From Parvibaculales bacterium (GTDB lineage Bacteria; Pseudomonadota; Alphaproteobacteria; RS24), in contig JBPCVS010000016.1 of NCBI GenBank assembly GCA_051010295.1, positions 1-25,903 on the forward strand: a stretch of 25,903 bases of DNA. Reading direction: 5' to 3'. The translations under genes were made by a program, and so were the position numbers. The notes beneath the pieces were generated by a model. The model worked only from the letters and a program-made list of their open reading frames with translations. It was not told the origin of the DNA and ran no database searches. Positions 3,522 to 22,525 of the stretch are shown here, in pieces (within the stretch, counting starts at the first letter, position 1; each line of letters begins with the position of its first letter).

Positions 3522-4448
3522 ATGGTCGCACCACCGCACACAGAAACTGATTTTATCCGCCCTTTCCGCATTGAGGGACAAAATGTTAATGGCCGCATTG
3601 TTCGGTTGCAGGCAGTCGTAACCGATATTTTAACGCGCCATAATTATCCCGATGTCATAAATCATTTGCTTAGCGAAGCACTGGTTTTGGCCGCCATGTT
3701 GGGCAGTAGTCTAAAATTTGATGGCCGCTTTATCTTGCAACTACAAGGTGCAGGCGCGATTTCTATGTTAATGGCCGAATATAAATCGGCAGGCGAGATG
3801 CGCGCCTATGCGCGATTTGATGCCGAAACATTGGCGGCGGCACAAAAAAGCGGGGTGCAAGGTTTGGCTCTCATGCAGTCTGATAAACAGGCGGCACACA
3901 TGGCTTTCACCATTGAACAGCGCACCGATGGAGAAAATTATCAAGGCATTGTGTCGCTTGAGGGCGATAATTTGGCACAAGCCGCGCTGGGTTATTTTGA
4001 ACGTTCTGAGCAAATTTCTACACGGCTGAAATTGGCCAGTGCGCCGATTATTCTACGAGCGGGTAAAACTAAATGGTGCGCGGGCGGCATCATGTTGCAA
4101 CAAGCCCCCGATATAGGCGGCAAAATGCCCTCTTTGCGGCAAGATGATGATTGGCATCGGCTGGCTATTTTGTTGGATACCACACAAGATAGCGAATTGC
4201 TGGATAACACAATTAACGTGGAAAAGCTGCTTTATCGGTTGTTTAATGAAGATGATGTGCGGCTTTTTGAACCGCGTGTTTTGCGCTTTTTGTGTTCGTG
4301 TTCGCGCCTGCGGGTGCAAAATATGCTCCGCGCTCTGCCAGATACAGAGCGGACGCAAATGCAGGTTGAAGATAAAATTGAGGTGCGGTGCGAGTTTTGT
4401 GCGAAACTATATCAGTTTTCGCCGCAAGAGGCTTTTACGGCTGATTAA
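3522..4448 (+). CDS. hslO: Hsp33 redox-regulated chaperone
   Basis: C-terminal CSC...CEFC zinc centre, YFERSEQI and AGGIMLQ motifs; argD-argF-hslO order. Start is ATG 3522 or TTG 3519. Confidence 0.92.
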   Translation: MVAPPHTETDFIRPFRIEGQNVNGRIVRLQAVVTDILTRHNYPDVINHLLSEALVLAAMLGSSLKFDGRFILQLQGAGAISMLMAEYKSAGEMRAYARFDAETLAAAQKSGVQGLALMQSDKQAAHMAFTIEQRTDGENYQGIVSLEGDNLAQAALGYFERSEQISTRLKLASAPIILRAGKTKWCAGGIMLQQAPDIGGKMPSLRQDDDWHRLAILLDTTQDSELLDNTINVEKLLYRLFNEDDVRLFEPRVLRFLCSCSRLRVQNMLRALPDTERTQMQVEDKIEVRCEFCAKLYQFSPQEAFTAD

Positions 4449-4479
4449 ATCTATGACTGATAAAAGGTGCGTTTGGCGT

Positions 4480-4500
4480 TATATAATGGCATATTATATA
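4480..4500. promoter_or_regulatory. Operator-like palindrome overlapping a TATAAT hexamer
   Basis: tatataat-ggcat-attatata, a perfect 8-bp inverted repeat, 35 nt upstream of the RND adaptor gene. Confidence 0.45.
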
Positions 4501-4535
4501 GGGTATAGATAAATGTCTCAATTTATGAGCCAAAG

Positions 4536-5804: not shown

Positions 5805-8800
5805 ATCCACTTATTGCCGCCATTGAATTATTTTCACGTCATCGCAATGCCGCCAATCTGCTATTTATCTCAATGATTATGTTTGGGTTTTTTGGGCTGT
5901 CGCAGCTCAATAGGCAATTTTTCCCCACTGTTGATGTCAAAAATGTCACCATTCGTGTCAACTGGCCGGGGGCGACCGCGCAAGATATTGATAAAAATAT
6001 CGTGGCCGCTATTCAGCCAGAAATCCGTTTTCTTGATGGCGTTAAAGAGGTGCGTAGCGAGTCGCGGCAGAGTTTTGCCGCTATCACGATGGAATTTAAT
6101 GCCGAAACCGATATGCAACGCGCTGTAGCTGATGTTGAGGCGGCGGTTAATGCTGTTACCACTTTGCCCAAAGAGGCCGAACGTCCGATTATCAAACAGG
6201 AGATTTTTTTTGAGCCTATCGCTTCTTTGCTGGTGAGTGGGCCTTATGATGAGGCGGTTTTGCGCACCTATGCCAAAAATTTGCGCGATGGTTTGTTGGC
6301 AGCAGGTGTTGATAAAATTGAATTTGAGGCTTTGCGTGAGCCAGAGATTTGGATTTCAACCCGCCCCGAGCAGTTGCGCCGCTATAATTTAACCCCACAA
6401 CTGATTGCCGCCCGTGTTGAAAATAGCTCGTTAGATGTGCCGGGCGGTATTTTGCGTGGCGCGGTTGAACAACAGGTGCGCGCCGTTGGGTTGGCGATGA
6501 GTGCCGAAGAAGTGGGTAACATTGATTTACGCACCTTACCCGATGGGCGGCAGTTAAAAATCCGTGATGTTGCACAGGTGCATGAGACTTTTGATGCGTC
6601 AAAGGCAAATGGTTATTATCGTGGCAATCTGGCTATTCGGCTGACAATTTCACGCAGTAAAAATTCTGACGCGCTGGAAGCCACCGCAAAAATTCGTGAC
6701 TATCTGGCGACAACCATTCCCACTTTACCGCCCAGCCTCACAGTCAAATTGTTCAATGTGAGTAGCAATAAAATTATCCAGCGCATCAATGTGTTGCTTT
6801 ATAATGGGCTGACTGGCATGGCATTGGTATTGTGCATTTTGTTTTTGTTTTTGAATAGCCGTATCGCCTTTTGGGTGGCGATGGGTATTCCTGCCTCCAT
6901 GATGGCCACATTTGGGGTTATGCTGATGTTGGGCATGAGTATCAATATGTTGTCTATGTTTGCGCTGATTATGACGATTGGTATTATTGTTGATGATGCT
7001 ATTGTGGTGGGCGAACATGCCGCCACATTGTCGGAACAAGGCATGAATGCGCAACAAGCCGCAGAAGGCGGGGCGATACGCATGACCATGCCGATTATCG
7101 CGGCGGCTTTGACCACATTGGCTGCTTTTTTGTCGGTGTTGATGGTTGAAGGCACATTCGGCCAGATTATCAAACCCATTCCATTGGTTTTGCTTAGTGT
7201 GCTGGTGGCCAGCTTGGTTGAATGTTTTTTAGTTTTGCCCGGTCATCTTAATCATGCTTTGTCGGCCCCGCCCAAAGCCCCGCCAAAATTCAAACAAAAT
7301 TTTCAACAAGCATTTAACAAATTCCGCGATGGTCGTTTTCGCCGTTTCATCACATTAGCCTATGATTATCGCTATACCACCATTGCTGGTGGTATCGGTA
7401 TTTTGGTGGTGTGTATTGGGTTATTATCAAGCGGGCGGGTGCCGTTTCGGTTTTTCCCATCACCTGAAGGCGAAGTTATCAATGCTTATGTGTTTTTTCA
7501 GCCCGGCACGCCCCGCGCCCAAACCCAAGAGGGCGCAAAAAAAGTGGTGGCCGCATTACACCAAGCTGAACGCGAATTGGGGGCTGAGGCTGGCGATGTG
7601 GTTGCGTTAGTTTTTACGCAAATTGGCCGCTCGCGCACCACAATGGGCGATGAGCGCGCTTATGTTTGGGTTGAACTTGTTGCCAGTGAAGACCGCGATA
7701 TTCGCACCCGTGAGATTGTTAAAAAATGGGAATCGCTGATGCCAGAACTGCCAGCTTTGCGCTATATTTTTGTGCGCGAATTGCGTAGCGGCCCGCCGGG
7801 ACGCGATATTGACATTCGGCTAAGCCATGATGACCCCAAAATACTAAAAAAAGCCGCATTGGAAGTGCGCGCCGCATTGGAAAAATATCCGGGCATTTCT
7901 CGCGCCCGCGACAATTTGCACTATAATAAGGAAGAATTATTACTGGAGGTTAATGAGCATGGCGCGGCGCGGGGCTTTAGCAATAATTTTGTTGGCCAAG
8001 CCACGCGGGGCGCGTTGGAGGGGCTGATTGCCAAACGTTTTGCGCGTGAAGATGAAGAGGTTACCATTCGCGTATTATTGCCCCGCGATGCCACAGGCCC
8101 CAATTTGTTGGAAGAGGTGGAATTGCTGATACCCGCCAGCACCCCGCCGCGTTTTGTGCCACTGACCGCTGTGGTAGATGTTGTTGCCCAGCCGGGTTTT
8201 TCAACTGTTCGGCGTGTTGATGGCAAAGTGGCTATCTCAGTCATTGCCGATTATGACGATGCGGCTGGCAACCCCAATAGTGTTTTAACCGCAATCAGCC
8301 AAAAAGCCCTGCCCGATATTGCCGCCAAATATAATGTTACTTTTAGCTTTGGCGGGCGCAACCAAGACCAGCGCGAATCGGTGGGTAATTTATTGCTTGG
8401 CACTTTTATCGGGTTGGGATTGATTTATGTGATTTTGGCTTTTGTGTTTGCCAGCTATTCAAAACCGCTCATTATTATGTCAATTATTCCTTTTGGCTTT
8501 GTCGGCACATTGCTTGGCCATTATATCCAAGGCCATGATTTAACTTTTTTAAGCTTGATTGGTCTGCTTGGCTTGTCGGGGATTTTGGTCAATAACTCAA
8601 TCATTTTAATTGCGCGTATTGAACAACGTCGCCAAACGGGTGAAGCCCTAAAGCTGGCAATTATCAATAGTGTGTGCGACCGCTTCCGTGCTGTTACGCT
8701 CACCTCGCTAACCACTGTGTTAGGGCTGACACCGCTTTTATTTGAAACCAGTATTCAAGCGCAATTTTTATTACCGATGGTGATTACCATTGCGTGGGGG

Positions 8801-8962
8801 CTGGCCATTGCGAGTGTTATTGTTTTGGTGCTGGTGCCAGCTTTGCTTGGGGTGCAAGAAGATGTGCGCCGCCTATTTGCGTCCGCCCACCAGCCCACTC
8901 ACCATTCCGCCCACCAGCCCACCCGGCAGCTTGTTGATACTACCGAAGAAATGGCCGAATAA
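5801..8962 (+). CDS. RND efflux permease (AcrB/AcrD/AcrF family)
   Basis: 1053 aa with two large periplasmic loops; TM4 GIIVDDAIVVGE, RFRAVTLTSLTT and GLTPL motifs. Confidence 0.93.
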   Translation: MNPLIAAIELFSRHRNAANLLFISMIMFGFFGLSQLNRQFFPTVDVKNVTIRVNWPGATAQDIDKNIVAAIQPEIRFLDGVKEVRSESRQSFAAITMEFNAETDMQRAVADVEAAVNAVTTLPKEAERPIIKQEIFFEPIASLLVSGPYDEAVLRTYAKNLRDGLLAAGVDKIEFEALREPEIWISTRPEQLRRYNLTPQLIAARVENSSLDVPGGILRGAVEQQVRAVGLAMSAEEVGNIDLRTLPDGRQLKIRDVAQVHETFDASKANGYYRGNLAIRLTISRSKNSDALEATAKIRDYLATTIPTLPPSLTVKLFNVSSNKIIQRINVLLYNGLTGMALVLCILFLFLNSRIAFWVAMGIPASMMATFGVMLMLGMSINMLSMFALIMTIGIIVDDAIVVGEHAATLSEQGMNAQQAAEGGAIRMTMPIIAAALTTLAAFLSVLMVEGTFGQIIKPIPLVLLSVLVASLVECFLVLPGHLNHALSAPPKAPPKFKQNFQQAFNKFRDGRFRRFITLAYDYRYTTIAGGIGILVVCIGLLSSGRVPFRFFPSPEGEVINAYVFFQPGTPRAQTQEGAKKVVAALHQAERELGAEAGDVVALVFTQIGRSRTTMGDERAYVWVELVASEDRDIRTREIVKKWESLMPELPALRYIFVRELRSGPPGRDIDIRLSHDDPKILKKAALEVRAALEKYPGISRARDNLHYNKEELLLEVNEHGAARGFSNNFVGQATRGALEGLIAKRFAREDEEVTIRVLLPRDATGPNLLEEVELLIPASTPPRFVPLTAVVDVVAQPGFSTVRRVDGKVAISVIADYDDAAGNPNSVLTAISQKALPDIAAKYNVTFSFGGRNQDQRESVGNLLLGTFIGLGLIYVILAFVFASYSKPLIIMSIIPFGFVGTLLGHYIQGHDLTFLSLIGLLGLSGILVNNSIILIARIEQRRQTGEALKLAIINSVCDRFRAVTLTSLTTVLGLTPLLFETSIQAQFLLPMVITIAWGLAIASVIVLVLVPALLGVQEDVRRLFASAHQPTHHSAHQPTRQLVDTTEEMAE
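8882..8922 (+). repeat. 24-bp-period in-frame tandem repeat (SAHQPTHH-SAHQPT)
   Basis: tccgcccaccagcccac at 8882-8898 and 8906-8922. Confidence 0.85.
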
Positions 8963-8963
8963 A

Positions 8964-10415
8964 TCACCGCCGCCAAAAAGCTGGCGCAAGCATGACCAAA
9001 ATGCTCAAAAACTCCAACCGCCCTAGCATCATGCCAAAAGCCAATGTCCATTTGGCGGCATCTGGCAAAGAGGCATAATTGCCGCTTGGCCCAACCACAT
9101 GCCCAAGCCCTGGCCCCACATTGGCAATAGCGGCTGCCGATGCCGATAGGGCAGTCAATGTGTCCAAACCCATGAGCGACAAAGCAAGCGATGTAAAGGC
9201 AAAAGTAATGAGAAAAATAGCCACAAAGCCGATGATTGAATTGGCAACTTCTTCTTCCAACACGCGGCCATTATAGCGAATAATAAAAACCCCATTTGGC
9301 AAAACAAGCTGGCGAATATAACGCCAGCCCGCTTTCAACACCACTTGCACACGAAAAATTTTTAGCCCGCAGGCGGTTGAACCCGCACACCCACCAATAA
9401 AGGTGAGAATAAAAAATAGCGCGACCGCAAATGGCCCCCAATTATTATAATCGGTGACGCTATAGCCAGTGCCAGATAAAATGGAGGTGGTGGAAAAACC
9501 AGATTGCAAAAACCGCCTTGCGCCATCACTCATTTGCATATCTGGCACTTGATAGAGCCACATAATAAATGCCGCCCCTAGCGCAATAGCAAGAAAAACG
9601 CGGATTTGCGAATCTTGCCAAAGGGCGTTGACCTTGTCATTCATGGCACGCAAATAGGCAACAAAAGGCAAAGATGAGGCCAGCATAAAAATAATGGCAA
9701 CCAGCTCAATCGCAGGCGCATCAAAAGAACCAAGACTGCCATTGCGAGTTGAAAAACCACCCGTTGCGATGGTTGTCATGGCGTGGGCGACTGCATCAAA
9801 AATGGGCATACCCGCCACCCAATAAGCCAGCGCACAAGCAATGGTGATACCAAAATAAAGCTGCATTAGCGAGCCAGCAATTTGTGCCGTGCGCGGCAGA
9901 ATTTTTTCCGAATTATCAGAACTTTCCAACCGAAATAATTGCATGCCGCCAACATTGAGCATTGGTAGCACCGAAATAGCCATTACAATAATGCCGATGC
10001 CGCCAAACCATTGCAACAAAGCCCGCCATAGCAAAATGCCGGGCGGTGCGTTATCCAAATCGGTTATAATGGTGGCGCCCGTTGTGGTCAGCCCCGACAT
10101 GGCTTCAAAAAATGCGTCAGTATAGCTCAGCTCCATCGCACCAAAAGCAAAAGGCAGGGCGGCAAAACTCGTGAGGGTCAGCCATGAAAAACCAGTCAGA
10201 ATAAAAGCTTGTTTGGTAGAAAGCGGTGGTAATTCGCCCCGATTGGTCAAAATAAGCAACCCCGAAACAAAGCCAGTAACCAGTGCGCTGGTGATAAACA
10301 CCCGAAACTCATCATGGCCTGCCAATGCGTCTATCAGTGCGGGAATCAAAAGCCCGACAGCCACTGCAGCCAGCAATATGCCGATAATAAAAAAAATGGT
10401 GCGTTGGTCGCTCAT
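8964..10415 (-). CDS. trkH: Trk potassium uptake membrane protein
   Basis: Four pore-loop motifs (SGLTTTGAT, IATGGFST, LSGTGYS, ANVGPGLG), GGCAGSTACGLK and C-terminal GRLE. Confidence 0.93.
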   Translation of the reverse strand: MSDQRTIFFIIGILLAAVAVGLLIPALIDALAGHDEFRVFITSALVTGFVSGLLILTNRGELPPLSTKQAFILTGFSWLTLTSFAALPFAFGAMELSYTDAFFEAMSGLTTTGATIITDLDNAPPGILLWRALLQWFGGIGIIVMAISVLPMLNVGGMQLFRLESSDNSEKILPRTAQIAGSLMQLYFGITIACALAYWVAGMPIFDAVAHAMTTIATGGFSTRNGSLGSFDAPAIELVAIIFMLASSLPFVAYLRAMNDKVNALWQDSQIRVFLAIALGAAFIMWLYQVPDMQMSDGARRFLQSGFSTTSILSGTGYSVTDYNNWGPFAVALFFILTFIGGCAGSTACGLKIFRVQVVLKAGWRYIRQLVLPNGVFIIRYNGRVLEEEVANSIIGFVAIFLITFAFTSLALSLMGLDTLTALSASAAAIANVGPGLGHVVGPSGNYASLPDAAKWTLAFGMMLGRLEFLSILVMLAPAFWRR

Positions 10416-10440
10416 CGCATAATATCCGCTTATTTGCCGT

Positions 10441-11637
10441 TTAATCTAGCTGTGCAAGGGCTTGTTGAAAATCAGCAAGCAAATCATCGCCATCTTCCAG
10501 CCCTACCGATACACGCAATGAAGCACCGCTAATACCTAATTCATGTTTGGCTGCTTCTTCCAACTTAAAATGAGTGGTGGTGGCAGGATGTGTAATCAGT
10601 GTTTTTGCATCACCGAGATTATTGGAAATTTTAGCAATGGTGAGCGCGTTTTCCAGTTTGAAAGCTTCGGCTTTGCCGCCTTTTATATCAAAAGCAATCA
10701 AATTGCCGCCGCGTTGCATTTGCGCCATCGCCAAATTATGTTGCGGGTGGGCTTTATCGGCGGGATAAAAAACCCGCTCAATTTTTTTATGCGCGCTCAA
10801 AAAATCGCATAATTTTTCGGCATTATCACAATGGGCATGCACGCGCAAAGCCAGTGTCTCTAGGGCTTTCACCATCACCCACGCATTAAAGGGGCTTAAA
10901 GATGGCCCTGTCTGGCGCAAAAAATTGGCCAATGTGTCGTGGATATAAGCCTCATGCCCAATAATAATACCACCCAAACAACGTCCCTGCCCGTCAATAT
11001 GTTTGGTGGCACTATAAACCACAATATCGGCACCAAACTCAAACGGCTTTTGCAAAATCGGGGTGGCAAATACATTATCAACCACCAGCAAAGCATCATT
11101 TTCATGCGCCAAATCAGCCACTGCGCGCATATCAATAATTTCCAGCACTGGATTAGAAGGCGTTTCTAAAAACAACATTTTGGTTTCGGGGCGCATGGCG
11201 GCTTTCCACGCTTGTATGTCGCGGCCATCAACCAATGTGCAATCAACGCCAAAACGCGGCAATAATGTTTCAACAACATAACGGCACGAGCCAAATAGCG
11301 CACGAGCAGCAACAATATGGTCGCCCGCTTGCACACAGCTCATCATAGAAGCTGTTACGGCCGCCATGCCAGTTGCGGTGGCACGCGCATCTAATTTGTG
11401 GCCGCATGTGCCAGTTTCTAGCGCAATCATGCGTGTTTCAAACATCCGCACAGTCGGATTACCAAAGCGCGAATAAATATAGCCATCTTCTTCTTCAGCA
11501 AAACGTGCGGCGGCTTGTTCGGCACTGTCATATACATAGCCAGAAGTTAAATAAAGTGCCTCGCTGGTTTCACCAAAAGCCGAACGATTTTGGCCCTCAT
11601 GCACCATATTGGTTTGGGTGTTATATTGTTTTTTCAT
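10441..11637 (-). CDS. metZ: O-succinylhomoserine sulfhydrylase
   Basis: Cys/Met-metabolism PLP motifs YSRFGNPT, LETPSNP and YSATKHIDGQGR; SAM riboswitch upstream. Confidence 0.92.
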   Translation of the reverse strand: MKKQYNTQTNMVHEGQNRSAFGETSEALYLTSGYVYDSAEQAAARFAEEEDGYIYSRFGNPTVRMFETRMIALETGTCGHKLDARATATGMAAVTASMMSCVQAGDHIVAARALFGSCRYVVETLLPRFGVDCTLVDGRDIQAWKAAMRPETKMLFLETPSNPVLEIIDMRAVADLAHENDALLVVDNVFATPILQKPFEFGADIVVYSATKHIDGQGRCLGGIIIGHEAYIHDTLANFLRQTGPSLSPFNAWVMVKALETLALRVHAHCDNAEKLCDFLSAHKKIERVFYPADKAHPQHNLAMAQMQRGGNLIAFDIKGGKAEAFKLENALTIAKISNNLGDAKTLITHPATTTHFKLEEAAKHELGISGASLRVSVGLEDGDDLLADFQQALAQLD

Positions 11638-11687
11638 CGCTCTTTCTCATCATTTCTATTGCTGCGTCCACCATGTGATATTGACGC

Positions 11688-11715
11688 AATAAAAAACCGG
11701 CCTGTGGCCGGTTTT
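11688..11715 (-). terminator. Intrinsic terminator in the metZ leader (riboswitch expression platform)
   Basis: Minus strand reads aaaaccggcc-aca-ggccggtttttt-att. Confidence 0.8.
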
Positions 11716-11725
11716 CGCCCGGCCA

Positions 11726-11779
11726 TTTTAGCTGTTTATTTAACGTGGCCGCAAGCCGACCGGCTCAAATTACCACGTT
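11726..11779 (-). ncRNA. SAM-II (SAM_alpha) riboswitch aptamer
   Basis: Minus strand reads aacgtggtaatttgagccggtcggcttgcggccacgttaaataaacagctaaaa. This has P1 aacgtgg/ccacgtt and the ATTTG, TTGC and 3' GCTAAA elements of the SAM-II consensus, and lies upstream of metZ. Recognised from memory of the consensus, not by a covariance-model search. Confidence 0.88.
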
Positions 11780-11784
11780 GGATA

Positions 11785-11813
11785 AGCATGTCTAAAAAAT
11801 CGGCGCACGTCAA
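11785..11813 (-). promoter_or_regulatory. sigma70-type promoter for riboswitch-metZ
   Basis: TTGACG (11813-11808, overlapping the lysS stop codon), a 17-nt spacer, then CATGCT (11790-11785). The predicted start site coincides with the aptamer 5' end. Confidence 0.7.
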
Positions 11814-13396
11814 GCCTGTTTTCGTGCCAAAGCCACATCAATCAGCGCGATGGTTTGGGCAATGCCATAGAGTGCCACAAAAGAGCCAAAACGCGGCCCT
11901 TGTTTTTGCCCCAACAAAACTTCGTATAATGTGCCAAACCAGCCGCGCAAATCATCTTCAAAATGCGCCTTGCCAATAGCATAAATCGCGCTTTGAATTG
12001 TTTCACCATCGGCTTTTTTCGGCAGTGCGTCCAGTGCCTCTTTAAGCGCGATAAGCGCGGTTTGTTCGGCACTATCTGGCGCACGAAAAGCTTTGTTGGG
12101 TGCTACAAAATCACGATAATAAGCCAGCGCGTAATCGGTTAAATTATCCAACAAAGGCTGGGTTTCGGGGCTGGCATCGGGCGCGTAGGCGACAATAAAA
12201 CCCCATAACACATTTTTATTTTCTGCATTGGACGCGCTGACAAGATTAAGCAGAAGCGCGAAACTCACCGATATATCCGCTTGGGGTGGCGCGCCATTGT
12301 GAATATGCCAAACGGGGTTGGCCAGCTGGTCGGCTGGTTCTTGTGTATGAAATTTATTAAGCAAGGCCAGATAATCATCCACCGCTTTGGGTATCACATC
12401 AAAATAAAGCCGCTTGGCTTTGCGCGGATTTTGAAACATATAAAGCGATAGGCTTTGCGGCGGCGCATAGCTGAGCCATTGTTCAATGGTCAGCCCATTG
12501 CCGCGTGATTTGGAAATTTTCTCGCCATTTTCATCAAGAAATAATTCATAAGAAAAATTTTCAGGCGGTGTGCCGCCCAAAGCCTGCACAATGCGCGAAG
12601 AAAGTTTTACCGATTCTGATAAATCTTTGCCCGCCATCTCATAATCAACCCCCAATGCCAGCCAGCGCATCGCCCAATCGGCCTTCCATTGCAGCTTGCA
12701 CGCCCCCCCCGTCACTTTGGTTTCAATCACTGCACCATTATCAGGGTGTTGATAATTTATAATGCCGCCCGCTTTATCAATGGGCGTTACTGGCACCATC
12801 AAAACGCGGCCTGTATCAGGGCAAATTGGCAAAAATGGCGAATAGGTGCGTTGACGTGCTTCGCCCAAAGTCGGCAAAATTATATCGCGGATTTTTTCAT
12901 AATGCGCCAATATCTGCAAAAGTGTCGCATCAAATGCGCCCGATTGATATTTGGCTGTCGCGCTGACAAATTCATAATCAAAGCCAAAACTATCCAAAAA
13001 AGCCTGCAGCCGCGCATTATTATGCGCCGCAAAACTATCATGCGTGCCAAATGGGTCTGGCACGGCGGTTAGCGGCTTGTCCAAATGCGCCGCCAGCATA
13101 TCACCATTGGGGATATTATCTGGCACTTTGCGCAACCCATCCATATCATCAGAAAAACACAGCAGGCGGGTTTTAATATCTGGCGCAAGCAGACAAAACG
13201 CATGGCGCACCATGCTGGTGCGCACCACCTCGCCAAAAGTGCCAATATGCGGCAGACCTGAAGGGCCATAGCCAGTTTCAAACACCGCCTCATTTTGGCT
13301 GGTATTTTCGCACCGCCGCAAAATTTTGCGGGCCTCCTCAAAAACCCATATTTTTGTGTCTTGCGCCAATGATTGAAGCGACATGACCATCTCCAT
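11810..13396 (-). CDS. lysS: Lysine--tRNA ligase, class I
   Basis: [12 protein letters not shown] (HIGH-like), KISKSRGN (KMSKS-like), WKADWAMRW and GPRFGSF. Start could be 13396, 13390 or 13384. Confidence 0.95.
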
Positions 13397-13502
13397 TTTT
13401 TACCCCTAAACTGCCTTTAGGTTTTGCAAATGTGCGGCGAACCTATCAGTCCGCATTTTATTGTCAATTGCCAAACGCCCATGATAACGGCATATAAGAC
13501 AG

Positions 13503-13940
13503 ATGAGCAATGCAATCCCCCAGTTGAACCCACACCAAGCTATGTTGGCTTGCCTAACATTGGTGATGGCAGTCAATGGTGCGCCAAGCACTAAAACCCG
13601 CGATTTATTGATGCGTTTGTGCGCCGCCACGCGGGGTTTTGCAATCATAATAGAGGAGGATACCATACAAAACGAAGCACAAATGGAGGCTATGACGCTT
13701 GATATTTTATCCGCCCCTGATGGTATGAATACATTATTGGAGCTGGCCGCACCAGTGCTGACAATGGAGGCGCGCCAATTAACTTATGCGTTGGCGGTGG
13801 ATTTTGTGCTGGCCAATAATAAGCTAACGCCAGAAGAAATGCGGGTGCTGGATATTCTGGCCGACACTTTCAAACTTGATAAACTTACCCGCGCCGCCAT
13901 TGACCGCGCCGCGCAAATCCGTTTGCAACCTTATTTTTAA
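13503..13940 (+). CDS. TerB-family (tellurite resistance-like) protein
   Basis: 145-aa helical protein with TYALAVDFVLAN..LTPEEMRVLDIL..LDKLTRAAIDR, resembling the stand-alone alphaproteobacterial TerB-family proteins; divergent from lysS. Confidence 0.7.
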   Translation: MSNAIPQLNPHQAMLACLTLVMAVNGAPSTKTRDLLMRLCAATRGFAIIIEEDTIQNEAQMEAMTLDILSAPDGMNTLLELAAPVLTMEARQLTYALAVDFVLANNKLTPEEMRVLDILADTFKLDKLTRAAIDRAAQIRLQPYF

Positions 13941-13944
13941 TGTT

Positions 13945-14049
13945 ATGCATGCTTTATCCACATTTTTTCTTTTGTTGTTTTTGTTGTTTGGGTTGCGTTT
14001 TATTTATTTTTCCACACTGGGATACGCATTTATTGCCGTTATTTTATAA
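13945..14049 (+). CDS. Putative 34-aa hydrophobic small protein, in frame with the GT2 (copy 1)
   Basis: MHALSTFFLLLFLLFGLRFIYFSTLGYAFIAVIL*. ATG lies 4 nt after the terB stop. Three of four differences from copy 2 within the ORF are synonymous in this frame. Confidence 0.45.
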   Translation: MHALSTFFLLLFLLFGLRFIYFSTLGYAFIAVIL

Positions 14050-14100
14050 TGTAGCTTCTGGCTTCTGGCATTATTTTGTCTGCCCTGTCAGAGTTGGTTT

Positions 14101-15591
14101 ATGGGTGAGGATGAAGACAGAGATAGTTTCTCTGATAGGGGAACGGATGGGTGGGATTTTTCAGATGATAATTCAGATGATGACTCACATGATGATTCAC
14201 AAGTCCCTGATACTCTAGAAGAAAGCACGATGGCTTATTTGCCTGCGGGTGCTTCTCATACACACCATAACAACATGGAACATCCTCATTTTTTACCTGC
14301 TTTTTTGGTTGTTCTTGTTTTTGGGTTGGTGTTTTTGGGTGCGGGCTTAATTGATGTGTTTGACAGCTTTCTAATATGCCTCTGGGGTGTGCATTTTTTT
14401 GGTGTATTGCCCCTATTACTGACACTGGAAACCCCAATCATTGCTTGGGGCAAGATAGATAAAAGCACGATAGATAACGCACATCATGATTTACCAATTT
14501 ATTCTATTTTAGTGCCAGTCTATCGGGAAGCCAATATGCTGTCCCAAATGGCCAAAGGTCTGGCCGCCCTTGATTATCCATCTGACCGATTGGATATTAT
14601 TATTTTGTTAGAAAGCGATGATAAGCGCACCTATCAGGCGGCACAGGCGATTAACTGGCCAGCTGGCACAAATTTGCTAGTGGTGCCTGATGGGGTGCTA
14701 CGCAATAAGCCACGTGCGTGTAATTATGGTCTAAAACAAGCACGCGGTGCGTTTTTGGTAATTTATGATGCTGAAGATATTCCCCACCCCCAACAATTAC
14801 GTGCCGCCATTGCCCGCTTTGAGGCAGACACTGACAAGCTTGCTTGCCTGCAATCGCCCCTATGTATTTTGCCCAACCATCATGGCTGGCTAGAAAGCCA
14901 TTTTCTGTTAGAATATAGACAGCTCTTTGGAGTTATTTTACCCGTTTTATGTATGTTTAATATGCCAATTCCATTGGGTGGAACCTCTAATCATTTCAAA
15001 ACCAGCATATTGCGCGACATTGGTGGCTGGGACCCATGGAATTTAACCGAAGATGCTGATATTGGCCTAAGGCTGGCATTGGAGGGCTATAAAATAGCCA
15101 TGATTGATGTGCCAACTTTTGAGAATGCACCCCATAGTGCAAAAATATGGATGCACCAACGCACCCGTGGGTTGAGTGGGCATATTCAAACATTGGGCAC
15201 ACATGGCTTTGTGTTTGATGATTGGATAATCAGGCGTGGCTTGCTGGCCACCCTATCAATGATAAGTATTTTATTGTGTCGTTTGCTCAGTGGCGTTCTC
15301 ACCATGTGTTGCGGGGTGCTTACCTTATGTGCTGTTTTGGGGATTCGCCCATGGCATTCTTCAACCATTTTTATATATATCGCATTAGGCGTTTATGTTG
15401 GTATCTTTGTTGTCAATATGCGGCTATTGCGTGATTTTCCTATCCGACACCGCTTATTTATTGTGTTCACAACGCCTTTTTATTGGCTGATGACCAACCC
15501 GGCTTTTGCCCGCGCCTGCTGGCGCATCGCAACTGGCAACCTAAAATGGATAAAAACACCACACAAACCACACACAGATACGATAAAATAA
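14101..15591 (+). CDS. Membrane GT2 glycosyltransferase, copy 1 (QRTRG variant)
   Basis: Motifs ILVPVYRE, KPRACNYGL, IYDAED (DxD-type), LGGTSNHF, GGWD..TEDADIG and WIKTPH with flanking TMs. The QxxRW motif reads QRTRG (GGG at 15169-15171). Confidence 0.9.
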   Translation: MGEDEDRDSFSDRGTDGWDFSDDNSDDDSHDDSQVPDTLEESTMAYLPAGASHTHHNNMEHPHFLPAFLVVLVFGLVFLGAGLIDVFDSFLICLWGVHFFGVLPLLLTLETPIIAWGKIDKSTIDNAHHDLPIYSILVPVYREANMLSQMAKGLAALDYPSDRLDIIILLESDDKRTYQAAQAINWPAGTNLLVVPDGVLRNKPRACNYGLKQARGAFLVIYDAEDIPHPQQLRAAIARFEADTDKLACLQSPLCILPNHHGWLESHFLLEYRQLFGVILPVLCMFNMPIPLGGTSNHFKTSILRDIGGWDPWNLTEDADIGLRLALEGYKIAMIDVPTFENAPHSAKIWMHQRTRGLSGHIQTLGTHGFVFDDWIIRRGLLATLSMISILLCRLLSGVLTMCCGVLTLCAVLGIRPWHSSTIFIYIALGVYVGIFVVNMRLLRDFPIRHRLFIVFTTPFYWLMTNPAFARACWRIATGNLKWIKTPHKPHTDTIK

Positions 15592-15607
15592 AATAAAGGA
15601 TTTTACT

Positions 15608-16792
15608 TTACACCTGCCGTTTGCGTAGCATTTCGGGCGTGAGTTGTGACAGATTACGCACGCCCATCAGCTTCATGCCCCGTTCTATTTCCGCTTGCAT
15701 ATTGCCAAGTGCTTTTTCCACACCAGCTTGCCCACCACCAGCGAGAGCATAAAGATACATGCGGCCGCCCGAGCAAGCCGTTGCGCCCAGTGCCATTGCT
15801 TTCAACACATGCGTGCCGCGCCGAATGCCACCATCAAGAATAATTTCAATATCACCACCAACCGCTTGCACAATTTCTTCTAGCTGGTCAAAAGGTGCGC
15901 GCCCGCCATCAAGCTGGCGGCCACCATGATTAGAAATCATAATAGCATCTGCGCCTAAACTGACAGCACGGCGAGCATCACTTACACTCATAACACCTTT
16001 GAGACAAAATTTACCGCCCCAGCTCTGGCGCAAATGGGCGGCATCATCCCAATTCATATTTTGGTCAAGCATGGTAGAAAAATAATCACTAATTGAAATG
16101 GCAATGTTTGAGCCTTGCCCGACATAATCTTTTAATTGCGATAGTTCAAATTTTTTGCGCAACAAATAATTGAGCGTCCATCTAGGTTTGATAGCAAATT
16201 CAAACAGGCTGTTGAGTGTGAGACGTGGCGGTGAAGTAAAACCAGTATGTAAATCGCGCTCACGATTGCCGCCTGTAATAGTATCCACAGTCAGGGTGAG
16301 AATATCAAATTTGGCTTGTTTAGCCATCTCCAACATGGCGGCATTGAGGGCTCTATCTTTGTGAAAATAAAATTGAAACATTTTAGGCGTGGTAATCAAT
16401 GCGCCAATCTCAGACAAGCCAACCGTGCCAAGCGAAGACACACCAAATAAAGTGTCATATTTCTCTGCCGCCCGTGCTACTGCGCGTTCGCCCTCATGGT
16501 GAAACAGGCGTTGCAATGCAGTCGGCGCACAAAATATGGGTAAGCCTAGGCGATGCCCCATCACCTGAACCGACATATCAATATCAGCCACACCCGCCAA
16601 TATGTTCGGCACTAAATCATAATCGTTAAAAGCTTGGCTGTTGCGCCGATAGGTCACCTCATCATCGGCCGCCCCATCAATATAATGAAAAATCGGTGCG
16701 GGCAAACGCTTGCGCGCCAATATGCGCAAATCATCAATATTTCTGCACTTTGCCAAAGATTGCGTCAATGAAAGGGGAAAATGGGGCATCAA
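15608..16792 (-). CDS. FMN-dependent alpha-hydroxy acid oxidase/dehydrogenase (LldD-like)
   Basis: Motifs FHYIDGAA, APTALQ, SNHGGRQLD and DGGIRRGTHVLKAMALGA. Substrate (lactate, glycolate or other) cannot be determined from the sequence. Confidence 0.9.
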   Translation of the reverse strand: MMPHFPLSLTQSLAKCRNIDDLRILARKRLPAPIFHYIDGAADDEVTYRRNSQAFNDYDLVPNILAGVADIDMSVQVMGHRLGLPIFCAPTALQRLFHHEGERAVARAAEKYDTLFGVSSLGTVGLSEIGALITTPKMFQFYFHKDRALNAAMLEMAKQAKFDILTLTVDTITGGNRERDLHTGFTSPPRLTLNSLFEFAIKPRWTLNYLLRKKFELSQLKDYVGQGSNIAISISDYFSTMLDQNMNWDDAAHLRQSWGGKFCLKGVMSVSDARRAVSLGADAIMISNHGGRQLDGGRAPFDQLEEIVQAVGGDIEIILDGGIRRGTHVLKAMALGATACSGGRMYLYALAGGGQAGVEKALGNMQAEIERGMKLMGVRNLSQLTPEMLRKRQV

Positions 16793-16822
16793 ACCAGCCT
16801 TATTTATGCTTTGCTGAGATTA

Positions 16823-18064
16823 TCAGAAATCTTGCTTGAAATGTTTGGATAATTTTAATCCTTGCGCCTGATAATGCGATTTCAAACCATCACCATAAAG
16901 CTTTTCTGGTGTTTCGGTAAGACGTTCATAAACCAACCGCCCAATAATTTGGCCGTGTTCAACAATAAAGGGCACTTCACGCGAGCGCACTTCCAGCACC
17001 GCATGGGCGCGGCCATCGCCCGCCTTTTGTGCGCCAAGCCCTTCTGCACCAAATCCAGGATCAAAAAACCCCGCATAATGCACACGAAACTCACCCATAA
17101 GAGGGTTAAAAGGTATCATCTCTGCCGCATGGGTGGGCGGAATTGTGACCGCCTCACGCGAGGCCAGAATATAAAATTCATCGGGGTCAAGGATAATCTG
17201 CTGGTCGGCGCGATGATAAATAGGTTCCCAATATTGCCGCACATCAAGGCAATCGGGCGCATCTACATCAATCAATCCCGCATGACGCTTGGCGCGATAG
17301 CCAATAATATCTTTATTATGCGTGCTATCACCAGCCTTGCTAGCTTGTAAATTGATGGAAAGTGCCAGACCATTATCAATATCAGCCTCGCCATCCACCA
17401 GCCCGATTGTGTGTTGCAACTGGCGAATATCATCATCACAGCTGGTTGATGGCCCGCGCCGAAAACGAATTTGCGACAGGCGCGAGCCAGCACGCACTAA
17501 TATCGGGAAAGTGCGCGGCGTTACTTCCAAATAAAGCGCGCCCTTATATCCGCCACACACTGTATCAAAGGCTGTGCCGAAATCGGTAATCACGCGTGTA
17601 AATACATCAATTCGGCCAGTTGAGCTTTTGGGGTTAGCAAAAGCGGTAATGCGTTCGGGTAGATTGAGCGATTCTAGCAGTGGCACCAAATAAACGCATC
17701 CGGTTTCTAACACCGCGCCCTCGCGCAAATCAATCTCGTGATAGGTTAGTAATTTCAATTTTTCTTGCACAGTGGCTTTAGCCCCGGGCAGAAAGCTGGC
17801 GCGGATGCGATAAGCCGTGCGCCCCAATCGTAAGTCAAGACTGGCTGGTTGTATCTGCTCGGCAACAATCGGCTCATTTGACAAAATTTGTTTTTCGCGC
17901 ACCATATTGACAATGCCGTGCGCGGGCAAAATGCCTGCTACATGGCCAGCCGCATGCTCTGCGCTGGCGGCGGTGGCCGTGCTGGTGGATTGGGATGTTT
18001 TTTCTGCTTCTCCCAGCCCGTTTTTGTCGAAAGACAAATTTGATAATGGCGCGTCTGCTGGCAT
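16823..18064 (-). CDS. dcd: 2'-deoxycytidine 5'-triphosphate deaminase (two-domain alphaproteobacterial type)
   Basis: Motifs QIQPASLDLRLG, NPKSSTGRIDVFTR, EFRVHYAGFFDPGFG and YQAQGLKLSKHF; aaggag SD upstream of ATG 18064. Confidence 0.9.
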   Translation of the reverse strand: MPADAPLSNLSFDKNGLGEAEKTSQSTSTATAASAEHAAGHVAGILPAHGIVNMVREKQILSNEPIVAEQIQPASLDLRLGRTAYRIRASFLPGAKATVQEKLKLLTYHEIDLREGAVLETGCVYLVPLLESLNLPERITAFANPKSSTGRIDVFTRVITDFGTAFDTVCGGYKGALYLEVTPRTFPILVRAGSRLSQIRFRRGPSTSCDDDIRQLQHTIGLVDGEADIDNGLALSINLQASKAGDSTHNKDIIGYRAKRHAGLIDVDAPDCLDVRQYWEPIYHRADQQIILDPDEFYILASREAVTIPPTHAAEMIPFNPLMGEFRVHYAGFFDPGFGAEGLGAQKAGDGRAHAVLEVRSREVPFIVEHGQIIGRLVYERLTETPEKLYGDGLKSHYQAQGLKLSKHFKQDF

Positions 18065-18170
18065 AATAAATCTCCTTCTACCTACCTACTACATACGAAG
18101 CGCAATAGCATGACACTAATATGATTCTTTAACAGATTTCCCCAACAACCGCACAAGTATCGCAAATCCT

Positions 18171-19664
18171 TTACTTTATTTTATTGGGCCTGTGTGTGCC
18201 TGTATGTGGTTTGTGTGGTGTTTTTATCCATTTTAGGTTGCCGGTTGCGATGCGCCAGCAGGCGCGGGCAAAAGCAGGGTTAGTCATCAGCCAATAAAAA
18301 GGCGTTGTGAACACAATAAATAAGCGGTGTCGGATAGGAAAATCACGCAATAGCCGCATATTGACAACAAAGATGCCAACATAAACGCCTAATGCGATAT
18401 ATATAAAAATGGTTGAAGAATGCCATGGACGAATCCCCAAAACAGCACATAAGGTAAGCACTCCACAGCACATGGTGAGAACACCACTGAGCAAACGACA
18501 CAATAAAATACTTATCATTGATAGGGTGGCCAGCAAGCCACGCCTGATTATCCAATCATCAAACACAAAGCCATGTGTGCCCAATGTTTGAATATGCCCA
18601 CTCAACCAACGGGTGCGCTGGTGCATCCATATTTTTACACTATGGGGTGCATTCTCAAAAGTTGGCACATCAATCATGGCTATTTTATAGCCCTCCAATG
18701 CCAGCCTTAGGCCAATATCAGCATCTTCGGTTAAATTCCATGGGTCCCAGCCACCAATGGCGCGCAATATGCTGGTTTTGAAATGATTAGAGGTGCCACC
18801 CAATGGAATTGGCATATTAAACATACATAAAACGGGTAAAATAACCCCAAAGAGCTGTCTATATTCTAACAGAAAATGGCTTTCTAGCCAGCCATGATGG
18901 TTGGGCAAAATACATAAGGGCGATTGCAGGCAAGCAAGCTTGTCAGTGTCTGTCTCAAAGCGGGCAATGGCGGCACGTAATTGTTGGGGATGGGGAATAT
19001 CTTCAGCATCATAAATTACCAAAAACGCACCGCGTGCTTGTTTTAGACCATAATTACACGCACGTGGCTTATTGCGTAGCACCCCATCAGGCACCACCAA
19101 CAAATTTGTGCCAGCTGGCCAGTTAATCGCCTGTGCCGCCTGATAGGTGCGCTTATCATCGCTTTCTAACAAAATAATAATATCCAATCGGTCGGATGGA
19201 TAATCAAGGGCGGCCAGACCTTTGGCCATTTGTGACAGCATATTGGCTTCCCGATAGACTGGCACTAAAATAGAATAAATTGGCAAATCATGATGTGCGT
19301 CATCTATCGTGCTTTTATCTATTGTGCCCCAAGCAATGATTGGGGTTTCCAGTGTCAGTAAGAGGGGCAATACACCAAAAAAATGCACACCCCAGAGGCA
19401 TATCAGAAAGCTGTCAAACACATCAATTAAGCCCGCACCCAAAAACACCAACCCAAAAACAAGAACAACCAAAAAAGCGGGCAAAAAATGAGGCTGTTCC
19501 ATGTTGTTATGGTGCCTATGAGAAGCACCCGCAGGCAAATAAGCCATCGCGCTTTCTTCTAGAGTATCAGGGACTTGTGAATCATCATGCGAATTATCAT
19601 CTGAAAAATCCCATCCATCGGTTCCCCTATCAGAGAACCTATCTCTGTCTTCATCCTCACCCAT
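18171..19664 (-). CDS. Membrane GT2 glycosyltransferase, copy 2 (canonical QRTRW)
   Basis: Same motifs as copy 1; intact QxxRW (TGG at 18608-18606). Confidence 0.92.
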   Translation of the reverse strand: MGEDEDRDRFSDRGTDGWDFSDDNSHDDSQVPDTLEESAMAYLPAGASHRHHNNMEQPHFLPAFLVVLVFGLVFLGAGLIDVFDSFLICLWGVHFFGVLPLLLTLETPIIAWGTIDKSTIDDAHHDLPIYSILVPVYREANMLSQMAKGLAALDYPSDRLDIIILLESDDKRTYQAAQAINWPAGTNLLVVPDGVLRNKPRACNYGLKQARGAFLVIYDAEDIPHPQQLRAAIARFETDTDKLACLQSPLCILPNHHGWLESHFLLEYRQLFGVILPVLCMFNMPIPLGGTSNHFKTSILRAIGGWDPWNLTEDADIGLRLALEGYKIAMIDVPTFENAPHSVKIWMHQRTRWLSGHIQTLGTHGFVFDDWIIRRGLLATLSMISILLCRLLSGVLTMCCGVLTLCAVLGIRPWHSSTIFIYIALGVYVGIFVVNMRLLRDFPIRHRLFIVFTTPFYWLMTNPAFARACWRIATGNLKWIKTPHKPHTGTHRPNKIK

Positions 19665-19715
19665 AAACCAACTCTGACAGGGCAGGCAAAATAATGCCAG
19701 AAGCCAGAAGCTACA

Positions 19716-19820
19716 TTATAAAATAACGGCAATAAATGCGCACCCCAGTGTGGAGAAGTAAATAAAACGCAACCCAAACAACAAAAACAACAAAAGAAAA
19801 AATGTGGATAAAGCATGCAT
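19716..19820 (-). CDS. Putative 34-aa hydrophobic small protein (copy 2)
   Basis: MHALSTFFLLLFLLFGLRFIYFSTLGCAFIAVIL*, in frame with GT2 copy 2. Confidence 0.45.
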   Translation of the reverse strand: MHALSTFFLLLFLLFGLRFIYFSTLGCAFIAVIL

Positions 19821-20000
19821 AACATTAAAATATATGAAATTATCTAAGCTACATTAGAAAAAATAGATTTTAAGCAATCTAGCGTTGCCGTCTAAAGGCT
19901 GATACAATGCCGCCATGTTTCGCTCGTGTTATGCAATCATTATTTACAAAATTATCGCTATTGCCCTTATTGTTCGCTCGCATTTTGTGCGTGGTGCGTG

Positions 20001-21056
20001 ATGGCCAATTTTTATCGTGCCATACGTCCGCTTTTATTTGCTCTGCCGCCAGAGGGTGCGCATCGGCTTGCATTGCTGGCGTTAAAAAGCCTGAATATGG
20101 CAGTGGGCTATGCTGAGGGTGAAGACCATTTGCTAAAACAACAAATTTGGGGGCGGCATTTTGCCAATCCATTTGGCATGGCGGCTGGGTTTGACAAAAA
20201 TGGCGAAACCATTGGCGGTGTTTTGAAGCTGGGTTTTGGCTTTACTGAAATCGGCACTTTGACTCCTTTGCCCCAAGCTGGCAATGCGCGGCCACGCCTC
20301 TATCGTCTGCCACAATATGGGGCAATCATAAATCGGCTCGGCTTTAATAATAAAGGTCAGATTGAGGCACTCCATAGATTATCAGTTTTTCGGGCGCGTT
20401 CATCGGGGCATCGCCGCCTTATTGGGGTTAATATCGGGGCGAATAAGCAAAGCCCTGATTGGTTTGCGGATTATGAAATTGGCGCGGCGCGTTTTGCGGT
20501 AATGGCAGATTATCTTACAGTCAATATCTCTTCGCCCAACACGCCGAATTTGCGTGATTTACAGGCGCAAGACCCGATTGATATTTTGATGAAAAAAGTG
20601 CGTATGGCCGCCCCCGCCACGCCGATTTTGATTAAGCTTGCGCCAGATTTGTCGCCTGATGAAGCTTGCGCGATTGCTGAGTTGGCTGTTGTTAACAAAA
20701 TTGATGGTTTGATTGTGTCTAACACCACCACCAGCCGCGCTGGTGTGAATGGGCATAAATTTGCAGCGCAAACAGGCGGCTTATCTGGGCAACCGCTTTT
20801 TGATAAATCCACTTCTTTGCTGGCCGAAATTTATCGCACCAGTCAAAATAAACTTACATTGATTGGTGTTGGTGGTGTGGCCACGCCAGAGCAAGCCTAT
20901 GAAAAAATTTGTGCTGGTGCGAGTTTGGTGCAACTTTATACTGCATTGATATATCAAGGGCCTGCTTTGGTAGGGCAGTTGCGGCGTGGGCTGGCCGATT
21001 TGTTGCGCCGTGATGGTCATCGTTCAATCAGCACCGCCATTGGGAGCAAAATTTGA
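20001..21056 (+). CDS. pyrD: Dihydroorotate dehydrogenase (quinone), class 2
   Basis: Motifs AAGFDKNG, GFGFTEIGT, INRLGFNN, NISSPNTP (catalytic Ser), KLAPD, SNTT and GGLSG. Start moved from 19926 to ATG 20001. Confidence 0.95.
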   Translation: MANFYRAIRPLLFALPPEGAHRLALLALKSLNMAVGYAEGEDHLLKQQIWGRHFANPFGMAAGFDKNGETIGGVLKLGFGFTEIGTLTPLPQAGNARPRLYRLPQYGAIINRLGFNNKGQIEALHRLSVFRARSSGHRRLIGVNIGANKQSPDWFADYEIGAARFAVMADYLTVNISSPNTPNLRDLQAQDPIDILMKKVRMAAPATPILIKLAPDLSPDEACAIAELAVVNKIDGLIVSNTTTSRAGVNGHKFAAQTGGLSGQPLFDKSTSLLAEIYRTSQNKLTLIGVGGVATPEQAYEKICAGASLVQLYTALIYQGPALVGQLRRGLADLLRRDGHRSISTAIGSKI

Positions 21057-21058
21057 AA

Positions 21059-21406
21059 ATGCGTGTAATACTTTACCATAATCCGCGATGTTCAAAATCG
21101 CGCCGCGCATTGGAGCTTATTCGCGCCGCTGGATATGAGCCCATTATTATAGATTATTTGAAAACCCCGCTTGATGTTGGTGGGTTGGCGGATTTACACA
21201 AGAAATTGGCGGTGCCAGTGCGCGATATGATGCGGCACGGCGAGGCCATATATAAAACCCTCAATTTGGCGGCGGAAGAAAGTGAGACAGCATTGCTGGC
21301 GGCGATGGCCGCGCATCCGATTTTATTGGAACGTCCAGTGATTGTAACGGATAAGGGCGCGCTTATTGGTCGCCCGCCAGAAAAGCTGCATGATATTTTG
21401 ACCTGA
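21059..21406 (+). CDS. arsC: Arsenate reductase (glutaredoxin-dependent ArsC family)
   Basis: HNPRCSKSR active-site motif and HPILLERPVI. Start is ATG 21059 or TTG 21053. Confidence 0.85.
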   Translation: MRVILYHNPRCSKSRRALELIRAAGYEPIIIDYLKTPLDVGGLADLHKKLAVPVRDMMRHGEAIYKTLNLAAEESETALLAAMAAHPILLERPVIVTDKGALIGRPPEKLHDILT

Positions 21407-21496
21407 ATATGAATTTTTGAATATGAATTTGCTTCTTGGTCGCTTTTCGCTATTATTTTTGGAGGGTATTGGGGGTTAAAAGTTAGGGAGAATAAA

Positions 21497-22525
21497 ATGC
21501 AGTCTTTTATCATCTGGATTATGAAAAATATGCCCAATTTTATATTGCGGCTACTGGCGGGCAAGCCGCTGGATATTGATGGCAACCGACTGGATGTGAA
21601 TATGCAGATTGTTGCCAATATGGCGGCGCGCAACGCGCCTGAGGCGGGCGAATTTCCGCCATTGGATGAGTTGCGGGCATCAATGGCCGAGCTGAAACCG
21701 CTTGATGCTTCGCGCCGTGCGGGTGTGCAGTCGGTGGATAGGCATTTTTCGGCCTCTGTTGGTGATATAAAAGTGCGTATTTATACCCCCCATAATTGCC
21801 CTGATTTAGCCCCTGCAATTTTGTTTTTTCACCAAGGCGGATTGGTGGTTATGGATTTGGATAGCGATGACACATTTTGCTCTGTTATGGCTGATGAAGC
21901 CAAAGCGCGGGTCATATCTTTGGATTATCGGTTGTGTCCAGAGCATGCGTTTCCTGCCGCCATTGATGACGCGTTGGCACTTTGGGATTATGTGCAAAGC
22001 CATGCGGCTGAATTGGGCATTGCGTCTGCACGCATTGCGCTGGCGGGGGATAGTGCGGGCGGTTTGATAAGTGCGGTGCTGGCACAAGAAATCCGCGATA
22101 GGGGCGGGGTGCAACCTGCCGCGCAATTATTGGTTTATCCATGGGTGGCAACGCAAATGGAAGAGCAGGGTTCGGTGGTGAGTTGTGCCGAAACTTTTCC
22201 GCTCAACCGTGCGACAATGGATTTTTTCAACGCGCAAGTGTTTCCTGATGATAAAAATACCGACCATAAATGGGCAAATCCATTGCATAATGACAATTTG
22301 GAAAATTTGCCGCCAGCGATTGTGGCAACGGCGGGGTTTGACCCTATTCGCGACCAAGGCAATGCTTATGCGCAAGCCATAAAAGCGGCTGGTAATCGGG
22401 TGACGCACCATTGCTTTGGCAGTTTAACGCATAGTTTTTTGATTTTCGGCAATGTGTCCCACACGGCACAACGCGCCAGTGTTCAACTGGCACGTGAGTT
22501 GGCTGAATTGCTAAAAACTGATTAG
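21497..22525 (+). CDS. Alpha/beta hydrolase, HSL-family esterase/lipase
   Basis: DYRLCPEH, GDSAGG nucleophile motif, DPIRD and H..L..G. The oxyanion motif reads HQGG. Confidence 0.9.
   Translation: MQSFIIWIMKNMPNFILRLLAGKPLDIDGNRLDVNMQIVANMAARNAPEAGEFPPLDELRASMAELKPLDASRRAGVQSVDRHFSASVGDIKVRIYTPHNCPDLAPAILFFHQGGLVVMDLDSDDTFCSVMADEAKARVISLDYRLCPEHAFPAAIDDALALWDYVQSHAAELGIASARIALAGDSAGGLISAVLAQEIRDRGGVQPAAQLLVYPWVATQMEEQGSVVSCAETFPLNRATMDFFNAQVFPDDKNTDHKWANPLHNDNLENLPPAIVATAGFDPIRDQGNAYAQAIKAAGNRVTHHCFGSLTHSFLIFGNVSHTAQRASVQLARELAELLKTD

Follow-up and report, generated by a model that had tools for sequence, protein, structure and literature searches.

The DNA analysed here, called the window throughout, is one entire contig of 25.9 kb (JBPCVS010000016.1, 25,903 nt) from the assembly GCA_051010295.1 of a Parvibaculales bacterium, a short-read metagenome-assembled genome (MAG) of 1.43 Mb in 204 contigs that is 91% complete. 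By the similarity of its lysS gene, the MAG belongs to the Parvibaculales, near the PS1-clade isolate IMCC14465, and the host is a PS1-clade-like member of this order with a small genome. The subject of this report is a gene encoding a membrane glycosyltransferase (GT2), present in two copies that lie within the arms of an inverted repeat. The arms, 1.67 kb each, enclose a unique core of 2.56 kb (15604 to 18163), which is seen in both orientations among assembled strains of the species.

Arm A (13935 to 15603, plus strand) comprises the last bases of an open reading frame (ORF), orf13503, followed by an upstream region and the gene GT2A. Arm B (18164 to 19830, minus strand) is the derived copy, and lies divergent beside pyrD. 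Both assignments are supported by repeat search, blastn, alignment and synteny. In the repeat search and with blastn, the segment 13932-15577 matched 19834-18200 in inverted orientation with 96.6% identity over 1,647 nt (43 mismatches, 3 gaps). Global alignment placed the outer ends at 13935 and 19830 and the inner ends at about 15603 and 18164, the inner tails of the two arms being diverged from about position 15568 on. The longest identical stretch between the arms is about 124 nt, as expected if the differences are evenly spread. Apart from one 43-nt pair, no other repeat of at least 40 nt was found within the window, so that a chance origin of the 1.67-kb repeat can be excluded. Over positions 14101-15567, comparison of A with B gives 29 synonymous and 11 non-synonymous codon differences, which corresponds to a ratio of non-synonymous to synonymous divergence (dN/dS) of 0.10. 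A preliminary description of this DNA had reported reverse-complementary arms at 13935-15603 and 18164-19830, GT2 genes pointing inward around a core with an oxidase and dcd, and divergence of the arms under purifying selection. The repeat search, blastn and global alignment bear out the first of these statements, the ORFs with their Pfam and NCBIfam matches the second, and the dN/dS value the third; its partial codon count agrees with ours.

Sequences for comparison came in part from a sample of the European Nucleotide Archive, ERZ25073868, which contains several strains of the window's species (contigs L109-L113, L116 and L117) plus a sister species. Judged by contig names and lengths only, this assembly looks long-read. 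In addition, Logan contigs (k = 31) of four runs from three studies (X1 to X4) were compared with window positions 11500-21500; X1 is a run of a cave metagenome that is independent of the window's source. Searches with the GT2 protein against genome contigs and against metagenome contigs of the Joint Genome Institute gave no match and hence no further populations, and an exact 41-mer from the arm had no match in metagenome contigs. A second public MAG (NCBI GCA_973532405.1) has a 14.7-kb contig (L118) that is 99% identical to window positions 3479-14331. It breaks off within arm A, in keeping with short reads that cannot cross the repeat.

Both GT2 genes are intact. GT2A (14101 to 15591, plus strand) encodes a cellulose-synthase-like membrane GT2 protein of 496 amino acids, and GT2B (18171 to 19664, minus strand) one of 497. 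The two products score above the cut-offs of the Pfam families Glyco_trans_2_3, Glyco_tranf_2_3 and Glycos_transf_2, as a GT-A catalytic domain should, and this domain is flanked by hydrophobic stretches that can be read directly from the sequence. Among solved structures, the closest are 6YV7, a minimal cellulose-synthase-like mannosyltransferase, and BcsA (4HG6/4P00). All NCBIfam equivalogs (PgaC, BcsA, EpsU) remain far under their cut-offs; PgaC, for example, reaches 63 bits where 422 are required. No polysaccharide genes were found beside GT2 in this genome, in G001 (a genome of the same genus), or in the sister species. From its sequence, GT2 is best described as a stand-alone synthase-type glycosyltransferase with no named product, which probably makes a cell-surface polymer and is probably non-essential.

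The synthase motifs DxD, TED and Q(Q/R)xRW are complete in GT2B (DAED, TEDAD, QRTRW). GT2A reads QRTRG in place of QRTRW, having a GGG codon (Gly; 15169 to 15171, plus strand) at the Trp position. The Trp of QxxRW is present in 19 of 19 relatives and its TGG codon in all 8 other arms examined, and an X1 contig in which the two arms are collapsed shows no change at position 18608, the counterpart of the Gly codon. The Gly variant is therefore private to one copy of one assembly. A further difference between the copies is a 12-nt in-frame indel (14173 to 14184, plus strand), recognised in alignments and present in arm A only; it falls in an acidic low-complexity region at the N-terminus. Across this region (window positions 14101-14260 and the equivalents in L109-L113), in-frame indels of 12 and 18 nt are encountered, and one arm, L112_a, carries a 30-nt tandem duplication further into the gene; these indels and the duplication vary mosaically among arms and strains. 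Upstream of GT2, inside both arms, lies a predicted hydrophobic ORF of 34 codons (13945 to 14049 on the plus strand, 19716-19820 on the minus strand), which is in frame with GT2 and ends with TAA. It is retained in 9 of the 10 arms examined, and both GT2 genes of the sister species are likewise preceded by a comparable hydrophobic ORF that is in frame and closed by a stop.

The core holds two genes, both on the minus strand and both identified with Pfam and NCBIfam: FMN_dh (15608 to 16792), for an LldD-like, flavin mononucleotide-dependent alpha-hydroxy-acid dehydrogenase/oxidase, and dcd (16823 to 18064), for a two-domain dCTP deaminase. On the left outer flank, orf13503 (13503 to 13940, plus strand; 145 amino acids) is a neighbour of GT2 that is conserved family-wide. 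The preliminary description had labelled it terB; Pfam TerB is indeed matched, but at E = 0.087, below the cut-off, so that the assignment is weak. Beyond it lies a class I lysS (11810 to 13396, minus strand). The right outer flank is pyrD (19926 to 21056, plus strand), divergent from GT2B. In the 100 nt upstream of dcd, the ribosome-binding site is all that detectably resembles the ancestral intergenic sequence found in other genera, and a scan of positions 13300-20200 for sigma-70 promoters and terminators returned sites no more frequently than in shuffled sequence.

The two copies could in principle be an artefact of strain co-assembly, each cell having one GT2 and two strains having been joined via their shared core. 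The preliminary description had named this outcome as one of two that would overturn it. The window is the whole contig of a MAG in 204 pieces, and several strains coexist in related samples, both of which fit such an artefact; but co-assembly would double the core, and the opposite is found in X1, where the arm interior is doubled. In that run, contigs run across all four junctions between arm and flank at a word depth of 73-90, and a single contig of 1,084 nt covers positions 18200-19283 at a depth of 148, without a separate contig for arm A between 14506 and 15507. Flanks and core at single depth with an arm interior at double depth are what is expected of a genome with two identical inverted arms. 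Arm contigs are also at about twice the flank depth in X2 and X3. Long contigs argue in the same sense: both GT2 copies occur together on a contig of 107 kb and on another of 231 kb in ERZ25073868, and again on a 1.98-Mb contig of the sister species. Taken with the X1 depths, this makes co-assembly extremely unlikely.

The history of the duplication was deduced from gene order. In G007, G008, G015 and G020, which represent four genera, the order is trkH(-), a Cys/Met enzyme(-), dcd(+), FMN_dh(+), GT2(-), orf13503(-), lysS(+), pyrD(+), with the proviso that FMN_dh is present in two of the four genera, G008 and G020 having no match to it. Compared with this family-wide order, the window has the block of five genes from dcd to lysS (dcd, FMN_dh, GT2A, orf13503 and lysS) inverted, and GT2B added between dcd and pyrD. 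It follows that GT2A, placed after orf13503, is the copy that has the ancestral neighbours. The simplest route to this arrangement would be that a copy was inserted between lysS and pyrD and that the five-gene block was then inverted. A comparison with relatives for one versus two GT2 copies, as the preliminary description had proposed, gave one in each of 40 other related genomes, and two in the sister species.

On the 1.98-Mb contig of this sister species, GT2a comes after orf13503 and is itself followed by FMN_dh and dcd, and GT2b is divergent beside pyrD. About 155 kb separate the two copies, which share one strand and are 97.06% identical over 1,669 nt. As in the window, the duplicated unit extends from the end of orf13503 to that of GT2. 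That two species have this unit and this pyrD junction in common implies one old duplication, which predates the split of the species. Protein identity between the sister species and the window is 96% for lysS, 88% for FMN_dh, 77% for pyrD and only 61% for GT2, which makes GT2 the fastest-evolving gene of the neighbourhood in this comparison. The position of GT2 is different again in G001 (contig L023, 2618-7637), where a single GT2 lies after lysS, not between FMN_dh and orf13503, and is followed by the housekeeping genes ADH, rplU, obg, proB, proA and nadD. By these gene orders, GT2 has moved more than once within this genus.

If the copies had diverged freely since the duplication, many sites should separate the 'a' copies from the 'b' copies. 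We compared the two window arms with seven arms from the ERZ25073868 strains, and found no site that separates all 'a' from all 'b' arms. Conversely, at 21 sites the two window arms share a state that is absent from every ERZ25073868 arm, and 36 of the differences between A and B are private to one window arm. The absence of a/b-separating sites, together with the shared window-specific sites, leads us to conclude that the copies undergo concerted evolution through gene conversion. The arms of independent populations are homogenised or mosaic: of the 22 A/B sites covered by the collapsed arm of X1, 9 show the A allele and 13 the B allele, and the arms of L117 and L110 have 2 differences in 914 nt. 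Synonymous divergence between the arms of one genome starts near zero and is 0.03 in L111, 0.06 in L109 and 0.095 in the window, and purifying selection is seen throughout (dN/dS 0.06-0.17). The preliminary description was thus right to regard the arms as recombination substrates that give rise to chimeric arms. As for the tufA/tufB pair of Salmonella discussed below, paralogues are far more alike within a genome (97% in the sister species) than are the proteins between species (61%).

Each arm of ERZ25073868 was then classified by the unique sequence on its outer side (orf13503 or pyrD) and on its inner side (the FMN_dh end or the dcd end). L111 and L116 have the arrangement of the window. 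L109 has the core reversed, in the order orf13503-arm-dcd...FMN_dh-arm-pyrD, which was confirmed at the nucleotide level. A second reversed haplotype is made up of two contigs: in L117 (444 kb, 15x coverage), orf13503 is followed by the arm and then by dcd, and the contig stops within FMN_dh; in L110 (291 kb, 16x), pyrD is joined across the arm to the 3' end of FMN_dh; and the two contigs abut by an exact terminal overlap of 22 nt. Two haplotypes per orientation are therefore present among the assembled contigs of one sample, and we hold with good confidence that both orientations of the core are real. The predicted core-flipping crossover is supported to the extent that opposite orientations are assembled from one sample; they belong to different strains, and not to a single clone.

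Since the arms are inverted and 2.56 kb apart, recombination events that are resolved as crossovers flip the dcd/FMN_dh core and create chimeric arms. Our interpretation, which we regard as probable, is that of a concertedly evolving pair of duplicates, in which the flip of the core is a by-product of the close inverted arrangement. In this scheme, one copy of an old GT2 pair would have remained at the ancestral site and the other divergent beside pyrD since before the species split. Homologous recombination, presumably of the RecA type, would repeatedly copy sequence from one arm to the other, and this conversion would keep the copies about 97-100% alike within a genome while the gene diverges quickly between lineages. 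The persistence of both orientations among strains is what may be expected if the structure is symmetric and flipping costs little. Both recA and mutS are present in the genome, within its 91%-complete MAG. No recombinase was detected among the window's ORFs scanned against Pfam, in line with the preliminary description. Over the same MAG, the search for serine recombinases gave none, and tyrosine recombinases are limited to two of Xer size, both on other contigs.

Several observations weigh against this interpretation. The orientations rest on assemblies, not on inspected reads. L112, from the same sample, is flanked by pyrD on either side (98.95% identity between the two flanks), which marks it as a chimera of two strains and implies that the assembler can mis-join at this place. 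The window itself is a short-read assembly, so that there is no guarantee of the placement of the 43 differences on A or B, or of the orientation of its own core. Linkage between the 3' parts of the arms and the core ends, as crossover should produce, is weak (10 versus 15-17 differences), and the tree of the right flank is star-like, with bootstrap values of 27-77, and gives no count of inversion events. Lastly, in X4 the core (window 15500-18200) is at about half the depth of the flanks (36-41 versus 82-105), with the arms at 77-87, and a simple two-copy repeat does not account for these values. The Logan contigs are silent on orientation, because at k = 31 the arms collapse or break; a loose end at 15357/18420 in X3 and X4, considered as a possible structural variant, proved to be no more than local divergence within the same gene. 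With contigs ending in arms, one contig chimeric and arms collapsing at k = 31, the orientation and the placement of variants in MAGs cannot be trusted at such a locus without spanning reads. One may then suppose that the repeat and the gene conversion are real and the inversion is not, the flipped contigs having been mis-assembled across nearly identical arms in a sample of several strains. The chimeric nature of L112 is certain, L110, L113 and L117 terminate within the repeat unit, and the private changes of L109_b are clustered at its outer edge, all of which would agree with this supposition. It has to explain, however, four junctions of the flipped type, on at least two haplotypes, that are mutually consistent (both sides of L109, and L117 with L110, which have similar coverage). 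The arms of L109 and L111 moreover differ at dozens of sites, by which accurate long reads could distinguish them; those of L117 and L110 are almost the same. A mis-join rate above one-half would be required. We therefore consider it unlikely that the inversion is only apparent.

A different question is whether flipping serves a function. The preliminary description had proposed a glycan switch without dedicated recombinase, in which a flip or a swap of 3' ends alters the synthase allele or its level, so that a surface polysaccharide varies within a clone. The coexistence of both orientations in one sample is compatible with such a selected switch, as are the rapid evolution of GT2 relative to its neighbourhood and the retention of the duplicate through a speciation event in small genomes; the Gly at the invariant Trp of QxxRW in one window copy would even provide a pair of active and impaired alleles. 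That Gly is confined to one arm of one assembly, however. Nor would promoters be exchanged by a crossover within the arm: the contrast drawn in the preliminary description between terB read-through on one side and an AT-rich region beside pyrD on the other concerns DNA outside the unit, and could not be upheld, each arm having its own upstream region of about 165 nt. After inversion both GT2 genes are again full length, and dcd and FMN_dh are again downstream of one arm and converging on the other. In the sister species the copies are direct and 155 kb apart, which leaves no invertible switch possible, yet they are equally alike. Finally, the opposite orientations stand on flanks that are about 1% different, and hence represent strains and not phases of one clone. 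A selected phase switch is, on this evidence, very unlikely. What remains of the proposal is that crossover between the arms flips the core; it had overlooked the old duplication, the gene conversion and the inversion of the five-gene block. A related view, which we find quite unlikely, is that the twin copies are kept by selection for allele shuffling, as two cassettes of a fast-evolving synthase of a surface polymer. If this were true, conversion and crossovers would keep yielding mosaic synthase alleles, and one copy could be silenced or restored, as the change from Trp to Gly in QxxRW may illustrate. It would amount to recombinase-free variation, in marine bacteria with small genomes, of a polymer exposed to phages or grazers, with the core flip as its visible footprint.

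Recombination between duplicates with inversion of the DNA between them has a known parallel. The two tuf genes of Salmonella, hundreds of kilobases apart, encode a highly conserved, essential and abundant product. This tufA/tufB pair is the closest known case. In Salmonella enterica, according to work by Abdulkarim & Hughes (1996) and Hughes (2000) cited in PMC6735719, and to PMC5485169, the two copies exchange genetic information by homologous recombination (PMC6735719; PMC5485169), the rate of conversion falls strongly in recA strains (PMC5485169), and recombination inverts the intervening region in up to half of the events, at a cost in fitness (PMC6735719). The likeness lies in a duplicate pair whose paralogues within a genome resemble each other more than orthologues do between lineages. 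In the present species, by contrast, 2.56 kb separate the arms, GT2 evolves fast and is probably not essential, and natural strains of either orientation persist.

In the sap locus of Campylobacter fetus, RecA-dependent inversion takes place between oppositely oriented S-layer gene cassettes; the invertible segment holds a single outward-facing promoter, and its flip changes the cassette that is expressed. Gene-sized inverted homologous segments, general recombination without a dedicated invertase and the flipping of an intervening segment are common to both systems. The GT2 genes, in contrast, point inward and have their own upstream region in each arm, so that no change of expression is predicted. 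Site-specific invertons (fim, hin, the capsule promoters of Bacteroides) also invert DNA near genes for surface polymers, but rely on short repeats, about 10-30 nt long, and on an invertase of the tyrosine or serine type encoded nearby. The present arms are 1.67 kb long; no invertase was found in the window, nor nearby in the related contigs that carry both copies. A flip that changes the link between promoter and gene, or the coding sequence, is typical of invertons; here the ORFs stay whole and the upstream region is within each arm. The large inverted repeat of plastids exists as flip-flop isomers, equimolar within one individual. It is similarly symmetric, with homogenised arms and two isomers of the enclosed single-copy region that have no functional consequence; scale and host are different, and the isomers described here are found between strains. 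Duplicates are expected to be uncommon in small-genome marine lineages. The locus offers, in such a lineage (1.4-2 Mb) and in an uncultured organism, a natural case of concerted evolution of a duplicate across a speciation, combined with inversion between gene-sized inverted repeats; each of the two processes is already textbook knowledge, and it is their combination that is found here.

Two minor observations concern the surroundings of the repeat. A SAM_alpha (SAM-II) riboswitch (RF00521, 71 bits; 11707-11786, minus strand) lies upstream of the gene of a pyridoxal phosphate-dependent enzyme of Cys/Met metabolism (10441-11637), and this leader remained with its gene through the inversion of the adjacent block. 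In the sister species (L114, positions 8006-15452; ERZ25073868 ctg77344), pyrD and GT2b are followed by a ZorA-like gene with a weak MotA/ExbB match, and next come genes of the OmpA-like and HNH/DUF8245 types. On either side of this block stands a copy of hfq, with 94% identity between the two over 635 nt, and the whole resembles a defence insertion of the Zorya type in which hfq is duplicated.

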